In this document: one piece after another, positions 3,026 through 39,771 of the stretch
How positions within the stretch are numbered: the first letter of the stretch is position 1
Layout of the letters: every line of letters begins with the position of its first letter
Made by a program: the position numbers and the translations under genes
Notes under the pieces: model-generated
What the model was told of the DNA's origin: nothing
The model's input: only the letters and a program-made list of their open reading frames with translations
The model's database searches: none
IMG/VR virus record: IMGVR_UViG_3300011832_000001
Span: 1-64,000 of that record
Source: a virus
Taxonomy: Duplodnaviria; Caudoviricetes
Reading direction: 5' to 3' (one strand)
Length of the DNA: 64,000 nt

Positions 3026-3264
3026 AAAAATCTGAATTTATCATAGGTATTACCATTGGAATACTTTTACTAATTGTCCTTATGGGTATTCAACTTGAAG
3101 GTAAGGAGTCTGAATTTAAGTGTGATGTTTTTACAGCAACAGTAAATAATTCAAATCAGCAAACATCAAAAGTAACAATTAAGGACGAGCGATTCATTGA
3201 TGGCACAGAAGTTGAAGTTCAAATTTGCGGAGAAAATTATCAAGTAAAACCTGTTGACAAGTGA
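3022..3264 (+). CDS. Small membrane-anchored protein
   Basis: N-terminal hydrophobic helix FIIGITIGILLLIVLMGI; AAGGAG RBS. Confidence 0.75.
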   Translation: MKKSEFIIGITIGILLLIVLMGIQLEGKESEFKCDVFTATVNNSNQQTSKVTIKDERFIDGTEVEVQICGENYQVKPVDK

Positions 3265-3282
3265 ATCGATACATGATATACT
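3254..3282 (+). promoter_or_regulatory. Sigma-A type promoter
   Basis: TTGACA-17 bp-TATACT with extended TG. Confidence 0.8.
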
Positions 3283-3314
3283 TTAGTTAATCCAAAAGGA
3301 AAGGGAGTTTTAAA

Positions 3315-34682: not shown

Positions 34683-35574
34683 TATAACTAAAGCGAATCA
34701 TAATCATATTAAAACAATTGATAACATTAGTAATTATGGCGTTTGGGATAAAGATGATAGTTTTAAACCTAGAGGTCGATATGCAGACGGAGAAATTGCT
34801 TATTCAAAACAGATTTTTCACACTCATGAAACATATTCTATTTTGCATGGTGAATTTCCAATTACAAATATTCGCTCAGTAGCACCTAAATCATCTATTG
34901 GTGAAATTCTTTGGATTTATCAAGACCAATCAAATTCTTTAGAACTATTAGAAGAAAAATATGGAGTCTCTTGGTGGAAGTCGTGGGATATTGGAGACGG
35001 AACAATTGGCTCGACATATGGGGAAATCATCAGAAAGTATGACATGATGAACCGACTATTAAAAGGAATGGAAACAGACCCGTATAGTAAAAGACACATT
35101 ATGAATATGTGGCAAGAAGATTCTCTTAGACAAAAAATTGGATTACCACCATGTGCATTTATGACAGAGTGGAATATCATTCCTATGACAACAGAAGAAG
35201 GCGAGAATGTAAGATATGTGACAATGAAACTTACTCAGAGAAGCTCTGATTATCTCACAGCTAACTCTATCAATAAGTTGCAATACTATGCTTTGATGTT
35301 AATGGTTTGTGGTCATCTAACTCATGAAACAGGAGTCAAACATTTCCCATATCTTTTCACGCACTCTGTAACTAATGTTCATATCTATGATAGACATTTT
35401 GATAAGATTATGGATATTAATAAAGACATTCGTGAAAATAAACACTTGCTTTCTGTACAGCCATTTCTTTCAGTTAATGGAAACAAGAATTTTTACGACT
35501 ACACTATTGATGACTTCAAACTTCACAACATGGAAATTATTTCAAAAGTAGGTAACTTTGAAATTGCTATTTAA
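34669..35574 (+). CDS. thyA: Thymidylate synthase (dUMP-type)
   Basis: EILW, LPPC, QRSSD with Asn 8 residues later, HIY..H; GAAAGGA RBS before TTG 34669 (track start 34627). Confidence 0.92.
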   Translation: MQENNITKANHNHIKTIDNISNYGVWDKDDSFKPRGRYADGEIAYSKQIFHTHETYSILHGEFPITNIRSVAPKSSIGEILWIYQDQSNSLELLEEKYGVSWWKSWDIGDGTIGSTYGEIIRKYDMMNRLLKGMETDPYSKRHIMNMWQEDSLRQKIGLPPCAFMTEWNIIPMTTEEGENVRYVTMKLTQRSSDYLTANSINKLQYYALMLMVCGHLTHETGVKHFPYLFTHSVTNVHIYDRHFDKIMDINKDIRENKHLLSVQPFLSVNGNKNFYDYTIDDFKLHNMEIISKVGNFEIAI

Positions 35575-35606
35575 ACCTTGACTTTTCAAGGTTTTTTTGG
35601 TATAAT
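35573..35606 (+). promoter_or_regulatory. Terminator hairpin containing the -35 of a sigma-A promoter
   Basis: AAACCTTGA-CTTT-TCAAGGTTT plus T tract; TTGACT (35578)-17 bp-TATAAT (35601). Confidence 0.85.
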
Positions 35607-35632: not shown

Positions 35633-36244
35633 ATGAAAAAAATTAAATTTATTGGTGGGTCTATGAATGCAAGTAAGTCTGCAACATTAATTATGCGAAA
35701 CTATGCATACTTAAAACAAGGTTTGAAAACAGCTATTATTAAACCCAACTTAGATACTAGAGATAATGATATGGTCATGAGTCGTGCTTTTGAGAAAGGT
35801 GAGAAAGCATTCGTTGTGTCTAATGCAGATGAATTGATTCAACTTTTTGACCGACTTGAACGTGAATCTTCTTATCCCGATGTCGTTTTAGTTGATGAAG
35901 TTCAATTTATGGATGTCGAATCAATTAAAGTTTTGGAATCTTTGTGTTACTATCAAGGAACAACTGTAGAAGTTTATGGGCTAGTCTCAGATTATCTAGG
36001 AGAAGTTTTCCCATCATCTCAGCGACTATTGACTTGTGCGGATATTCACATTTTAAATGGTCTTTGCGATTGTGGAAATGAAGCGTATTACAATATGCGC
36101 CTAGTAAATGGAGTTCCTTTCTTTGGTGAAGCTCCTCAGATTGCAGTAGGAGATGTTTCGTCTAATGATACTGTATCATACGAGCCTAAATGTGGACGTT
36201 GTTATTTAGATGCTGAAAGAAAGTATGGAGGTCATGATGAATAA
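35633..36244 (+). CDS. tdk: Thymidine kinase
   Basis: GSMNASKS, KP..DTR, VDEVQF, YGL..DY...F, C.CG..A and Y.P.C..C motifs. Confidence 0.92.
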   Translation: MKKIKFIGGSMNASKSATLIMRNYAYLKQGLKTAIIKPNLDTRDNDMVMSRAFEKGEKAFVVSNADELIQLFDRLERESSYPDVVLVDEVQFMDVESIKVLESLCYYQGTTVEVYGLVSDYLGEVFPSSQRLLTCADIHILNGLCDCGNEAYYNMRLVNGVPFFGEAPQIAVGDVSSNDTVSYEPKCGRCYLDAERKYGGHDE

Positions 36245-36371
36245 GAAACGAAAAACGATGGGTAAAATGACAAGGAAGCGTGTTCTTTGGAATATGAATC
36301 CTGTAACACGAGTAACAAAAAACAAAAAGAAATACACAAGAAAAGATAAGCATAAGAAAGGATTTGAATAA
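36237..36371 (+). CDS. ArfA/BrfA-like small basic protein (not in ORF track)
   Basis: GGAGG RBS; MNKKRKTMGKMTRKRVLWNMNPVTRVTKNKKKYTRKDKHKKGFE*. Confidence 0.7.
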   Translation: MNKKRKTMGKMTRKRVLWNMNPVTRVTKNKKKYTRKDKHKKGFE

Positions 36372-36372
36372 T

Positions 36373-36663
36373 TTGAAATTCTTTTTTAGAGATGATATTG
36401 TTTTATATCGTGGTGAATCCTATAGAGTTGAGGTTTTTAATCTCTTCTCTAGATTCGCTGATATAACAAAAGATGAGCGTTCTTATCATACAATTCATGA
36501 GTCTGAGCTATCCTTGCTTTTCAGAGGAGCTAGATATTATGGCGAAAGAGTTGAGAACTTTTATGATGACTGTCTTGACAGATACAACATTTTAAGTTAT
36601 GATAAAGATAAGGAATCATTAATGGAGATAATGAAAGTTATTAAAATATTGGAGTGTGATTAA
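36373..36663 (+). CDS. Hypothetical protein
   Basis: AAGAAAGGA RBS supports TTG 36373 (track start 36364). Confidence 0.7.
   Translation: MKFFFRDDIVLYRGESYRVEVFNLFSRFADITKDERSYHTIHESELSLLFRGARYYGERVENFYDDCLDRYNILSYDKDKESLMEIMKVIKILECD
36575..36603 (+). promoter_or_regulatory. Sigma-A type promoter for the DNA polymerase, inside the upstream ORF
   Basis: TTGACA-17 bp-TATGAT. Confidence 0.6.
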
Positions 36664-39600
36664 ATGAGACCAACACGTTACGAGAATTTTCACAAGCATG
36701 ACCACTTATCAAACTTAGTGGTTGCGGATTCGGTGGCAACGCCTGATGATTATATCGAACGTTATAAAGAGTTAGGAATGCAAGGATATTCTCTATGTAA
36801 TCATGGAATTTTGATGAACTACGGAGAAGCATACTATAAGGCTAAGAATAGCGGATTCAAACCAATCTTTGCAGTCGAAGCCTATATGCGAGTTAGCCGT
36901 GAATCAAAGTCAATGAATCACCAACTAATTATTGCTAAAAATAATGACGGACGTAAAGAATTAAATGCGCTCCTATCTAAAGCTTGGGTTGAACGACTTT
37001 ATAATAAACGTAATCCAATCTACTTGGATGAGCTTCTGAGCTTAAATCCTAATAACTTTATCCTTACGACAACTTGTATCGATAGTGTTATGTCGAAACA
37101 CGGTGATGAAGCTACAGAATGGTATTTAAAACCTCTTATTAATCACTTTGGTAAGGAGAACATCTATCTAGAAATGCAATACCATGTATGGCAACCACAG
37201 ATTGAATACAATCAGCGTTTATTGAAATATCGTGATAAATATGACTTGAAGCTTTTCTTTGCTACAGATAGTCACCATGTATCACCTCAGGATGTTGAGT
37301 TCCGTACAATCATGCAGGAATCAAAAGGTCTTTTTTATTCAGATGACCCTGAAAATAGCTTTTGGTTGGACGTTCCTGATATTGATACTATCTATGACCG
37401 TTTCGCTCAACAAGGCGTTCTAACAGAAGATGATGTCACGGAAGCAATTAATTCAACAATTGAAGTATTCGATAAAATTGACAACATTGAATTGAGTACA
37501 GAAATTAAAATGCCGTCATTGTATCCTAATAAGACCCATGAAGAGAAGGTTGAAATTCTCAAGAAGTTAATTGTAAAACTTTGGAAAGAGGAGTCTAAAA
37601 AAGTTCCTGTTGAGAATCATCCTATCTATAAGCGTGAGATTGCTCATGAATTTAAAATTATTAAGGATACAAAAATGGAGGATTACTTCTTATTCAACTA
37701 TGAGATTATTCGTAGAGGAAAAGAGAAACATGGTTTACAGTTAACGCAAACAGGACGTGGCTCAGCACCATCTATGTATCTTAATAAATTATTAGGATTT
37801 ACCGATGTAGATAGAATTGATGCCACTGTTAAGATGTTTCCTGAGCGTTTCATGTCTGTAGAACGTATCTTAGAGGTTGCGAGCTTACCTGATATTGACT
37901 TTAACATGGTTGCAGATGAACCTGCTGTTAAGGCAAGTGTTGAAATTCTAGGAGAAGGTCACGTATATCCTATGATTGCTCTAGGAACATATCAAGATTC
38001 GGGAGCATTCCACTTATATGGGAAAGCCAAAGGTGTTCCCCCTAAAGCCCGTGATGAAGTAGGAAAAAACTTAGACTCATATAAGAACAGTGATGAATAT
38101 GGAGATATGATTCATAAATCTAAAAAATATGTAGGTATCACTGAGTCTATTTCTATTCACCCTTGTGCATACCTTCTCTACGATGAGGATATTGCTTCTG
38201 AGGTTGGTTTAATTAAGACAACGAATACAGATGGTGAAGAGTTCACTATGGCTCTTATTGATAGTTATTATTCAGATGTTTTTAAGTTTCTTAAAAACGA
38301 TTATTTGAAGGTAACTGTCTATAAGATTCTTTATAACGTAGCTGAAATCACAGAACCACTTCCTAGCGTATCTGATTTAGTTAAGTATTCAGTGGAGAAC
38401 CCTGATATTTGGAAGATTTATGAAGACGGTATGACAGCAACTCTAAACCAAACCGCAACTGACTCAGCACGTCCTCAAGTCATGTGGTATAAACCTAAGA
38501 CAATCGCAGAGTTGTCTCACTTTGTCGCAGGTATTCGTCCGTCATTCCAATCTATGAAGAAACGATTATTCGACCGTGAAGATTTCAGTTACGGTATTCC
38601 TGAGTTTGATAAACTCTTACAGTCTAGTGATAACTTTATTCTATATCAAGAAAATATCATGGCAGTTTTGCAATATGCAGGTTTCCCATCAGGTGAGACT
38701 TATTCTCTTTTGAAGCAGATTGCAAAGAAACGTGGTAACTTTGAATTGATTAAAGAGCGATTCTTTAAAGGGTTTATGAAGAAAGCTAGAATTGAAAGAC
38801 AGGAAGTTGAATATGTATGGCGAATCATTGAAGATGCTGTAGGGTATGGATTTAACTCATCTCATAGTTACTCAGTAGCGGTAGATTCATTGTATGGAGC
38901 TTACTATAAGCATAAGTATCCTGTTGAATACTTCTCTGTAATCCTAGAGATTTACAAGAAAGATAAAACAATTGCACCTCAAATCTTCTCTGAGTTGGAA
39001 TACTTCGGTCTTCGAGTTAAGCCATTGGAGTTTGGTAAATCTCGTGCAGAGTTTTATGCAGATGGAAATGATATTTATCGTGGTACTTCTTCGGTCAAAG
39101 GTGTCAATAAGAATACAGGCGAACTTCTTTATCAAATCTCAAAATCAGTAAAAGAAGATGCAGATTTTGTAGATGTTCTATTGTTATGTGAGGAAAATAA
39201 AGTGAGTAAATCTGATATTCATAAACTGATTCATGTTGGGTATTTCCGAAAGTATGGCGGAAGTCGATACTTGCTAAATATTTGGGAAAGATACTATGGT
39301 CAAATCAAACCACCTTCTAAAGATAAAGCTTTTAAAGTGGATGGTGTTAAACGTTCTCGTGAGACTCGATTGAGTAATCTTTATGAATCAATTAAAGATA
39401 TGGATAAAGAAGAGAACATTACACCTCTTGAGTTAGTTCGATTCGAATATGGATTATTCAATCAGCTAGAGAGTCGTCATAAAGAGTTCTCAAACAGAGA
39501 TTATATTGTTCTTGATACTTTAACAAAGTACAAGAATGCAGTAGTTAAAGTTCAGGCTCTTAAATCAGGGAAGATTGTAAACGTAACTGTTAAGTCAGCC

Positions 39601-39771
39601 TATTTCTATGATGATAATGGGAAGCCAAAGCTTTTAAAAGGTGATGTAATTCGTATTCATCGTGCTCAAAAAGAAGAGATTAATAAACCTGTAACTATTG
39701 ATGGAGAGGAAGTTTGGAGACCAAGTGGAGAATTTAAACACTTCTTATACACTTGGAATAAATTTAATTAA
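36664..39771 (+). CDS. dnaE: DNA polymerase III alpha-like, C family (YorL-like), with intact PHP domain
   Basis: HKH..S, NHG and DSH PHP ligands; GRGSA, FPERF, PDIDF, HPCA, KNDYL, YQE, YGFN.SHS.S motifs. Confidence 0.95.
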   Translation: MRPTRYENFHKHDHLSNLVVADSVATPDDYIERYKELGMQGYSLCNHGILMNYGEAYYKAKNSGFKPIFAVEAYMRVSRESKSMNHQLIIAKNNDGRKELNALLSKAWVERLYNKRNPIYLDELLSLNPNNFILTTTCIDSVMSKHGDEATEWYLKPLINHFGKENIYLEMQYHVWQPQIEYNQRLLKYRDKYDLKLFFATDSHHVSPQDVEFRTIMQESKGLFYSDDPENSFWLDVPDIDTIYDRFAQQGVLTEDDVTEAINSTIEVFDKIDNIELSTEIKMPSLYPNKTHEEKVEILKKLIVKLWKEESKKVPVENHPIYKREIAHEFKIIKDTKMEDYFLFNYEIIRRGKEKHGLQLTQTGRGSAPSMYLNKLLGFTDVDRIDATVKMFPERFMSVERILEVASLPDIDFNMVADEPAVKASVEILGEGHVYPMIALGTYQDSGAFHLYGKAKGVPPKARDEVGKNLDSYKNSDEYGDMIHKSKKYVGITESISIHPCAYLLYDEDIASEVGLIKTTNTDGEEFTMALIDSYYSDVFKFLKNDYLKVTVYKILYNVAEITEPLPSVSDLVKYSVENPDIWKIYEDGMTATLNQTATDSARPQVMWYKPKTIAELSHFVAGIRPSFQSMKKRLFDREDFSYGIPEFDKLLQSSDNFILYQENIMAVLQYAGFPSGETYSLLKQIAKKRGNFELIKERFFKGFMKKARIERQEVEYVWRIIEDAVGYGFNSSHSYSVAVDSLYGAYYKHKYPVEYFSVILEIYKKDKTIAPQIFSELEYFGLRVKPLEFGKSRAEFYADGNDIYRGTSSVKGVNKNTGELLYQISKSVKEDADFVDVLLLCEENKVSKSDIHKLIHVGYFRKYGGSRYLLNIWERYYGQIKPPSKDKAFKVDGVKRSRETRLSNLYESIKDMDKEENITPLELVRFEYGLFNQLESRHKEFSNRDYIVLDTLTKYKNAVVKVQALKSGKIVNVTVKSAYFYDDNGKPKLLKGDVIRIHRAQKEEINKPVTIDGEEVWRPSGEFKHFLYTWNKFN

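Follow-up and report, generated by a model that had tools for sequence, protein, structure and literature searches.

A conserved 44-residue phage protein with an ArfA-like basic tail is a candidate ribosome-rescue factor

The release-factor-dependent ribosome-rescue factors ArfA, ArfT and BrfA were each found by genetics in one lineage. Further small rescue factors probably exist that are invisible to homology searches, and whether S. aureus has an unidentified Arf system was left open in a review (PMC8012679). Here we analyze P0004, a very basic 44-residue protein encoded by a short open reading frame (ORF) of IMGVR_UViG_3300011832_000001, a 123.9-kb IMG/VR virus contig with 34% G+C and 22 transfer RNA (tRNA) genes, of which positions 1–64,000 make up the stretch under study, hereafter the window. 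We propose that P0004 is a rescue-factor-like ribosome binder that would be made constitutively, a reading to which we give a probability of about 0.6. It is carried by an ordered resemblance between the C-terminal tail of the P0004 family and that of ArfA, and by terminators predicted inside the coding regions of bacterial relatives. Ribosome binding, release-factor recruitment, truncation of the transcript and a benefit to the phage are steps that we infer.

In both ArfA and BrfA, a Lys-His pair contacts U534 of the 16S ribosomal RNA in the messenger RNA (mRNA) entry channel (PMC6881298, PMC8012679), and in BrfA the conserved residues are R25 and this Lys-His motif, K49-H50 (PMC6881298). A non-stop design has been documented for arfA and brfA that couples the level of the factor to trans-translation capacity; in brfA, a rho-independent terminator lies within the coding region and about 62 of the 71 codons are translated (PMC6881298). 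ArfT of Francisella tularensis is about 40 residues long, has a basic C-terminal stretch, ends at an ordinary stop and is not under trans-translation control (PMC6299226). Finally, the PrfH-RtcB2 operon is a known precedent for the pairing of ribosome rescue with RNA repair (PMC9304027, PMC9223846).

The P0004 reading frame starts at an ATG at 36237 and stops at a TAA at 36369–36371, with an alternative in-frame ATG at 36234 that lies just 2 nucleotides from the GGAGG of the ribosome-binding site. Its 44 residues hold 18 Lys or Arg against 2 Asp or Glu. The gene is made up as follows.

36227..36231, + strand: GGAGG ribosome-binding site, 5 nucleotides 5′ of the ATG at 36237, as read from the sequence.
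36237..36371, + strand: the basic 44-residue ORF (P0004), stop included; a PHROG 2701 member and sub-threshold relative of Pfam DUF7230.
36276..36314, + strand: central motif R14..W18..N21-P-V-T-R-V26; R, W and P are nearly invariant in the alignments, and the family consensus is R..W(G)..NPvTRV.
36318..36359, + strand: basic C-terminal tail K28–K41 with the invariant K.KY.RK.KHK, aligning with the mRNA-channel tail of ArfA; K38-H39 is at 36348–36353.
36360..36371, + strand: short non-conserved end G-F-E and an ordinary TAA; there is no hairpin or T-run inside the ORF.

The original prediction had described a very basic 44-residue ORF with a GGAGG ribosome-binding site that overlaps the stop of the thymidine kinase gene and contains TRVTKNKKKYTRKDKHKK, and all of this was confirmed in the sequence; the overlap amounts to the final 8 nucleotides of the kinase gene. 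It had also stated that a normal stop comes soon after KHK, and the TAA indeed lies five codons past KH, with no hairpin and with none of the non-stop regulatory design found in bacterial relatives.

This small ORF is a real gene under purifying selection. The original prediction had made its case depend on the ORF being conserved, and conservation was found at several levels: P0004 matched PHROG 2701 with an E value of 6.4e-16 (residues 1–42 on profile positions 1–42 of 46), and a ten-member profile searched against 1.84 billion representatives recovered 442 clusters at E ≤ 1e-3, mostly of 37–70 residues, to which scans of IMG/VR and GTDB added further viral and bacterial copies. Members of the PHROG 2701 type occur in phages of Staphylococcus, Bacillus and Campylobacter and in Ruminococcus and other Clostridia. 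They share the consensus ..R..W(G)..NPvTRV.p.K.KY.RK.KHK, in which Y33, R35, K36, K38 and H39 were invariant in the first alignment. Comparison of P0004 with its diverged relative L104 gave 22 identical, 16 synonymous and 5 non-synonymous codons, and the gene order ThyA, thymidine kinase, small gene, 96-residue gene and DnaE is kept in related 122-kb phage contigs, where the small gene was called by the gene finder. When a 1.5-kb DNA query was run against phages, the small ORF was the sole part that matched, at 71–79% identity in Staphylococcus Twortvirinae, and a shorter DNA query added the copy in Bacillus phage PK-3 and an annotated 43-residue gene in Campylobacter Fletchervirus phages. The description of the gene as unannotated therefore stood in part: the copies in PK-3 and in Campylobacter phages CP30A, CP8 and CPX are unannotated in GenBank, and other GenBank relatives are annotated as hypothetical proteins. 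A tblastn search of phages with P0004 gave no match, probably through the low-complexity filter, although the DNA search did find copies; a word-index search for protein homologues returned two near-identical matches, which reflects a limit of that index.

The resemblance of the tail to ArfA was then assessed at the level of profiles. The E. coli ArfA segment quoted in the original prediction agreed with the ArfA chains in the PDB, and of the BrfA segment quoted there the BrfA paper bears out a shared Lys-His motif, K49-H50 (PMC6881298). Aligning a 150-sequence family alignment with an alignment of 14 ArfA sequences, hhalign returned a single match, which placed TRVvpdKk---KYsRKxKHK of the family on qRvEkxkKGKGSYxRkxkh of ArfA with a score of 23.9 (P 3.2e-4). 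Shuffling all ArfA columns gave scores of 7.9 ± 1.8 (maximum 18.1), shuffling just the 25 columns of the basic core gave 9.6 ± 2.3 (maximum 16.9), and in neither set did any of 300 shuffles reach 23.9; a control with the alignment reversed scored 13.0. Because the score lies above every shuffle control, with 18.1 the highest of the 600, residue order and not composition alone is common to both tails, and the ArfA-like tail that had been predicted thus held up as a profile-level likeness. By analogy with ArfA and BrfA, the K-H pair of the family would contact 16S U534. The central R..W..NPVTRV motif is a candidate partner-binding or beta-strand segment, and it is kept even in distant family members that are without the KH tail.

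The predicted regulation of bacterial relatives points in the same direction. Bacterial copies that have a long non-conserved C-terminal extension carry a strong hairpin and T-run that begin 0–6 nucleotides past the KH(K) codons, with the stop beyond the T-run, and the residues past KHK in these forms are not conserved and look hairpin-encoded. Such in-ORF terminators were predicted at L019, L021, L022, L023, L025 and L026, with free energies (dG) of -15 to -29 kcal/mol and stops 42–150 nucleotides past KH, at L065, L069 and L070, again after KH(K), and at L053, L054 and L055, three distant members in which the terminator falls inside the ORF beyond the basic tail. A DUF7230 exemplar of 46 bits, L061:1480-1710 (+), has a terminator hairpin and T-run right after KHK, 111 nucleotides before its stop. 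Genuine arfA genes put through the same analysis showed in-ORF hairpins of -20 to -30 kcal/mol. Under a strict criterion (dG ≤ -15, at most 40 nucleotides, T-run ending before the stop) such hairpins were present in 9 of 12 bacterial family loci versus 2 of 202 ordinary ORFs of the same loci; a looser criterion (dG ≤ -10, up to 49 nucleotides) was dropped for its background of 14%, against 1% for the strict one. An ordinary stop 3–9 codons past KH, with no hairpin, is found in the copies that precede RtcB and in all phage copies. We read the predicted bacterial in-ORF terminators as the non-stop-mRNA design of arfA and brfA, which would be independent support for a rescue role. The claim that P0004 lacks a regulatory tail proved apt in this light: its bacterial relatives have one, a predicted intrinsic terminator in the ORF after KHK, and the phage copy does not.

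Further observations were made at these loci. The L061 exemplar is flanked by a Fic-domain-like gene on one side and an Mrr-like restriction gene on the other. L026 has a second copy of its in-ORF terminator region (CACAAAAACAGCCGTCC...TTTTTGATTATTATTT) about 165 nucleotides further downstream, past the stop of the ORF (L026:3086-3130 and 3253-3300), and the duplication looks as if an insertion had split the original terminator. For L019, contigs from four bovine gut metatranscriptome runs, all of one study, span both the RtcB gene and the small ORF, and in one run a contig ends within the hairpin; these contigs were not used as evidence, since the end of a contig does not mark the end of a transcript and carried-over DNA may be present. 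The rtcB-covering contigs of three runs all start at L019:1398-1404 with Illumina adapter sequence directly before, which hints at a defined RNA 5′ end about 175 nucleotides 5′ of rtcB.

Under the proposed mechanism, a ribosome at the 3′ end of a broken, non-stop mRNA would be stalled with its mRNA entry channel empty, and the K.KY.RK.KHK tail would enter that channel. The R..W..NPVTRV segment at the decoding center would engage a class-I release factor or another hydrolysis partner, leading to cleavage of the peptidyl-tRNA and recycling of the ribosome. Many of the copies in Ruminococcus and other Clostridia would be made from a self-truncated, stop-less mRNA, so that their product would accumulate only upon saturation of trans-translation, as for arfA and brfA, and other bacterial copies would be co-transcribed with RNA-repair enzymes. 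The phage copy would have lost, or never had, this non-stop brake. Lying behind a consensus promoter, the phage factor would be made whenever the operon for nucleotide metabolism and replication is on, and such a constitutive factor could release ribosomes caught on degraded mRNA of the host or the phage, among it messages that ribonuclease-type defenses have cut.

P0004 is not a member of the ArfA family, and judging from profile matches its true families are PHROG 2701 and DUF7230-like proteins; neither PHROG 2701 nor DUF7230 has a functional annotation. Weaker matches of P0004 were to PHROGs 18092, 6310 and 1359, all of unknown function, and family members carry the public names 'hypothetical' or 'uncharacterized' throughout. 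Pfam DUF7230 (PF23876) matched 44 of 49 family members at E ≤ 10; at its cut-off of 27 bits the R. callidus member passes with 28.4 bits, and P0004 stays below with 7.2 bits (15.8 for a 53-residue form). NCBIfam has no family for the small protein, and the ESM Atlas returned unnamed clusters and one DUF7230 cluster. A weak match of P0004 to Pfam COX7B was dismissed as chance.

An AlphaFold2 model of the R. callidus member (mean confidence, pLDDT, 78.7) predicts a helix at residues 12–22, an extended stretch at 23–43 and a short helix at 44–49 over RKQKHK. R23 and K47-H48 of this protein lie two residues from R25 and K49-H50 of BrfA, taking the BrfA positions from the literature (PMC6881298). 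The phage form has just 13 residues ahead of the conserved Arg. A complex prediction of R. callidus release factor RF2 with the R. callidus small protein scored 0.04 against a mark of 0.32 and carries no weight either way.

We looked at the gene neighborhoods of the family, in which genes of RNA repair recur. The small gene lies directly beside rtcB, which encodes an RNA ligase, in Ruminococcus and Oscillospiraceae, and both orders occur: small gene then RtcB, with an ATGA start/stop overlap, at L016, L018 and L024 (L012 is a near-identical copy of the L024 locus, with RtcB 99.7% identical), and RtcB then small gene at L019, L023, L025, L026, L065-68 and the P0065 contig. In L017, a metagenome-assembled genome (MAG) of Clostridia, the small gene is followed by genes for a LigT-type 2H phosphoesterase and a Macro domain protein, and in the viral contig L010, which is complete at 124 kb, a DUF2828 gene is found 5′ of the small gene. 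RtcB, LigT and Macro neighbors fit the idea of answering RNA cleavage and are a second independent line of support for a rescue role. The phage studied here encodes its own full RtcB RNA ligase at 120421–121611 of the record, beyond the window, 50% identical to Ruminococcus RtcB; the two genes lie about 84 kb apart and are not adjacent. A Phage_L5_gp82-family gene lies 5′ of this RtcB gene, and a small S-adenosylmethionine-dependent methyltransferase gene lies 3′. Also beyond the window, a DUF2828 (Ro/TROVE-like) gene (88040–88879) is just 5′ of the array of 22 tRNA genes (90029–95086), and no transfer-messenger RNA (tmRNA) was found by ARAGORN. RtcB was rejected as an obligate partner, since five complete phages with the small gene have no RtcB, and the target of the small protein should therefore be a universal host component. 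Among R. callidus proteins with an RF-1 domain, only RF1 and RF2 were found, with no third and no ArfA match.

Several findings weigh against the proposal that P0004 is a rescue factor. The search with an ArfA model that the original prediction had suggested came out negative, as PF03889 gave no match at E ≤ 10 in P0004, in the six-frame translated phage genome or in the 49 family members, and the model itself works, since 14 of the 151 Pseudomonadota genomes searched with it gave ArfA. Neither ArfA nor BrfA came up in PDB sequence searches that started from P0004, the PK-3 protein or two family profiles; for the BrfA chain of 6SZS, not retrieved by the family profiles at E ≤ 10, this is a weak negative. 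The hhalign probability was 39%, over 24 columns of a lysine-rich segment, the family tail is three residues shorter than that of ArfA with KKK (or K-x-K) in place of KGKGS (a minority of members read KKGY or KKAY there), and the likeness of the tails may equally reflect remote homology or convergence on one binding site. The phage protein is without most of the bacterial N-terminal helix, the family terminators are predictions, the family has a patchy distribution, with copies in 9 of 400 Clostridia genomes, and the linkage to RtcB, seen mainly in one group, Ruminococcus and Oscillospiraceae, may mean that the protein acts in RNA repair itself.

These searches also brought up two other proteins. 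One weak PDB profile match, at a non-significant E of 3.6, was to mt-SAF38, a trypanosome mitoribosomal small-subunit assembly factor (7pua/9hny chain Fi, residues 567–600), whose matched tail segment reads ..VVPPTKVV..RKYRRKQQEGHK.. In a Pelagibacter MAG, a 37-residue ORF at L033:1498-1611 (-) scores 28.8 bits, above the Pfam ArfA cut-off; its last residues are GKGSYKRKN and its stop is an ordinary one, so that it resembles a 'short ArfA' from which the non-stop tail is missing. A phage-type family copy (L029), adjoining an HNH gene, is present in this MAG as well.

The RNA-repair neighborhoods led us to weigh whether the small protein is instead a ribosome- or RNA-binding accessory of RNA repair and no recruiter of release factors. 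Its tail would then bind tRNA halves, or would plug or mark the mRNA channel or decoding center of ribosomes that are idle or damaged, and so protect its targets or hand broken ends to RtcB or a similar ligase; the phage version could equally be a hibernation-type or host shut-off plug. The tight linkage to RtcB, LigT and Macro genes speaks for this, as do the presence of RtcB and DUF2828 in the phage itself, the lack of evidence for release-factor contact, and the survival of R..W..NPxTRV without the KH tail, such that the conserved core may bind elsewhere than in the mRNA channel. Yet the five complete phages that have the gene have no RtcB, and an in-ORF terminator, which ties expression to trans-translation capacity, is so far known for ArfA and BrfA only (PMC6881298) and would serve no evident purpose in a ligase cofactor or a hibernation plug. 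On balance we consider this explanation, the main rival to our reading, unlikely.

Two further readings take the basic composition of P0004 at face value. A generic small nucleic-acid binder, such as a DNA-condensing or virion-internal protein, would account for the extreme Lys/Arg content and for the location of the gene in Kayvirus, Twortvirus and Sciuriunavirus, where it lies inside the tail module between tail-tube and tail-assembly genes. The Kayvirus copy of Staphylococcus phage MCE-2014 (L003:3921-4153), however, is preceded by a terminator and then by a TTGACA-17-TGnTATTAT promoter, and a second TTGACA promoter overlaps the 3′ end of the gene; from its predicted signals, this copy is an early-type monocistronic unit within a late tail module. 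Such a separate unit, in which the gene follows a terminator and has a predicted consensus promoter of its own, speaks against a structural role. Its neighbors differ entirely between phages, being thymidine kinase and DnaE here, clamp loader and RNase H in Campylobacter phages and nicotinamide adenine dinucleotide (NAD)-salvage genes in PK-3; it also occurs in bacterial chromosomes beside RtcB; and invariant Y, R, K, K and H at fixed spacing, together with the non-stop design, would not be expected of a bulk DNA binder, making this option quite improbable. That the ORF is no functional gene, having arisen by chance as an A-rich open frame where two genes meet, is suggested by its very short length, its low complexity and the empty filtered tblastn search, but is scarcely credible given the 442 clusters, the PHROG 2701 match (E 6e-16), the 16:5 ratio of synonymous to non-synonymous codons, the conserved synteny and the good ribosome-binding site.

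Returning to the constitutive rescue factor that we favor, the genes around it in this phage run in the order thyA, thymidine kinase, small ORF, 99-residue ORF and DnaE-like polymerase. The elements next to the small ORF are listed here.

35578..35606, + strand: putative near-consensus sigma-70/sigma-A type promoter, TTGACT-17-TATAAT with TG, 11 of 12 matches, from a consensus scan alone.
35633..36244, + strand: thymidine kinase gene (Pfam TK, E 8e-26).
36364..36663, + strand: 99-residue ORF of unknown function with a TTG start at 36364 or 36373; no Pfam or NCBIfam family.

The predicted promoter heads the unit of thymidine kinase, small ORF, 99-residue ORF and DnaE, and it overlaps a terminator-like hairpin (35573–35594) of the preceding thyA gene. 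The 99-residue ORF, for which only TTG starts are available, overlaps the 3′ end of the small ORF, and the DnaE-like polymerase gene (36664–39771) follows it directly; its counterpart in related phages (L101) is the 96-residue gene between the small gene and DnaE.

Taken further, we see roughly an even chance that PHROG 2701/DUF7230 is a fourth, widespread family of small alternative rescue factors, the first known in phages, in which the Clostridia copies are throttled by trans-translation by way of an in-ORF terminator or paired with RtcB for rescue and repair in the manner of PrfH-RtcB2, and large lytic phages of Staphylococcus, Bacillus, Campylobacter and the host of this phage carry an unthrottled copy that keeps ribosomes available while the phage or ribonuclease-type defenses shred mRNA. 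A literature search found no paper on this family, on DUF7230 or on a phage-encoded Arf-like factor. The family offers a testable candidate with hundreds of members, a recognizable regulatory signature and a link between rescue and RNA repair. If the proposal is true, this would be the first virus to bring its own ribosome-rescue factor, which would bear on how phages handle host mRNA decay, tmRNA saturation and ribonuclease-based abortive infection, and a conserved Kayvirus gene now labelled 'hypothetical' would gain a function.

Set beside the known systems, the family shares with ArfA a small, basic, unstructured protein whose tail reads Y-x-R-K-x-K-H after RV-x-K-x-KK, and arfA carries an in-ORF hairpin ahead of the stop, as predicted for the bacterial relatives. 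It differs in its upstream motif, which in the family is R..W..NPVTRV, in its hosts (Firmicutes, Campylobacter and phages, as against beta- and gammaproteobacteria for ArfA) and in the normal stop of the phage form. The Ruminococcus pairs of small gene and RtcB share the two-gene logic of PrfH-RtcB2, with a putative rescue component beside RtcB; PrfH, however, is a release-factor homologue with its own GGQ domain, whereas the partner of RtcB here is a 45–65-residue peptide without a catalytic domain, and the small gene of this phage lies away from its RtcB. Compared by description, BrfA (YqkK/ResQ of B. subtilis, PDB 6SZS) may have an order of features similar to that modelled for the R. callidus member, namely an N-terminal helix, an Arg, a strand region and a basic Lys-His tail, and its rho-independent terminator within the coding region has predicted counterparts in the bacterial relatives; BrfA and the family both occur in Gram-positive hosts, but BrfA is reported to be confined to Bacillus, and most of its N-terminal helix has no counterpart in the phage form. 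ArfT, also compared by description, has the motif KKGGSTNKK and no reported KH-type tail, but resembles the phage copy in its size, its basic C-terminal stretch and its ordinary stop.

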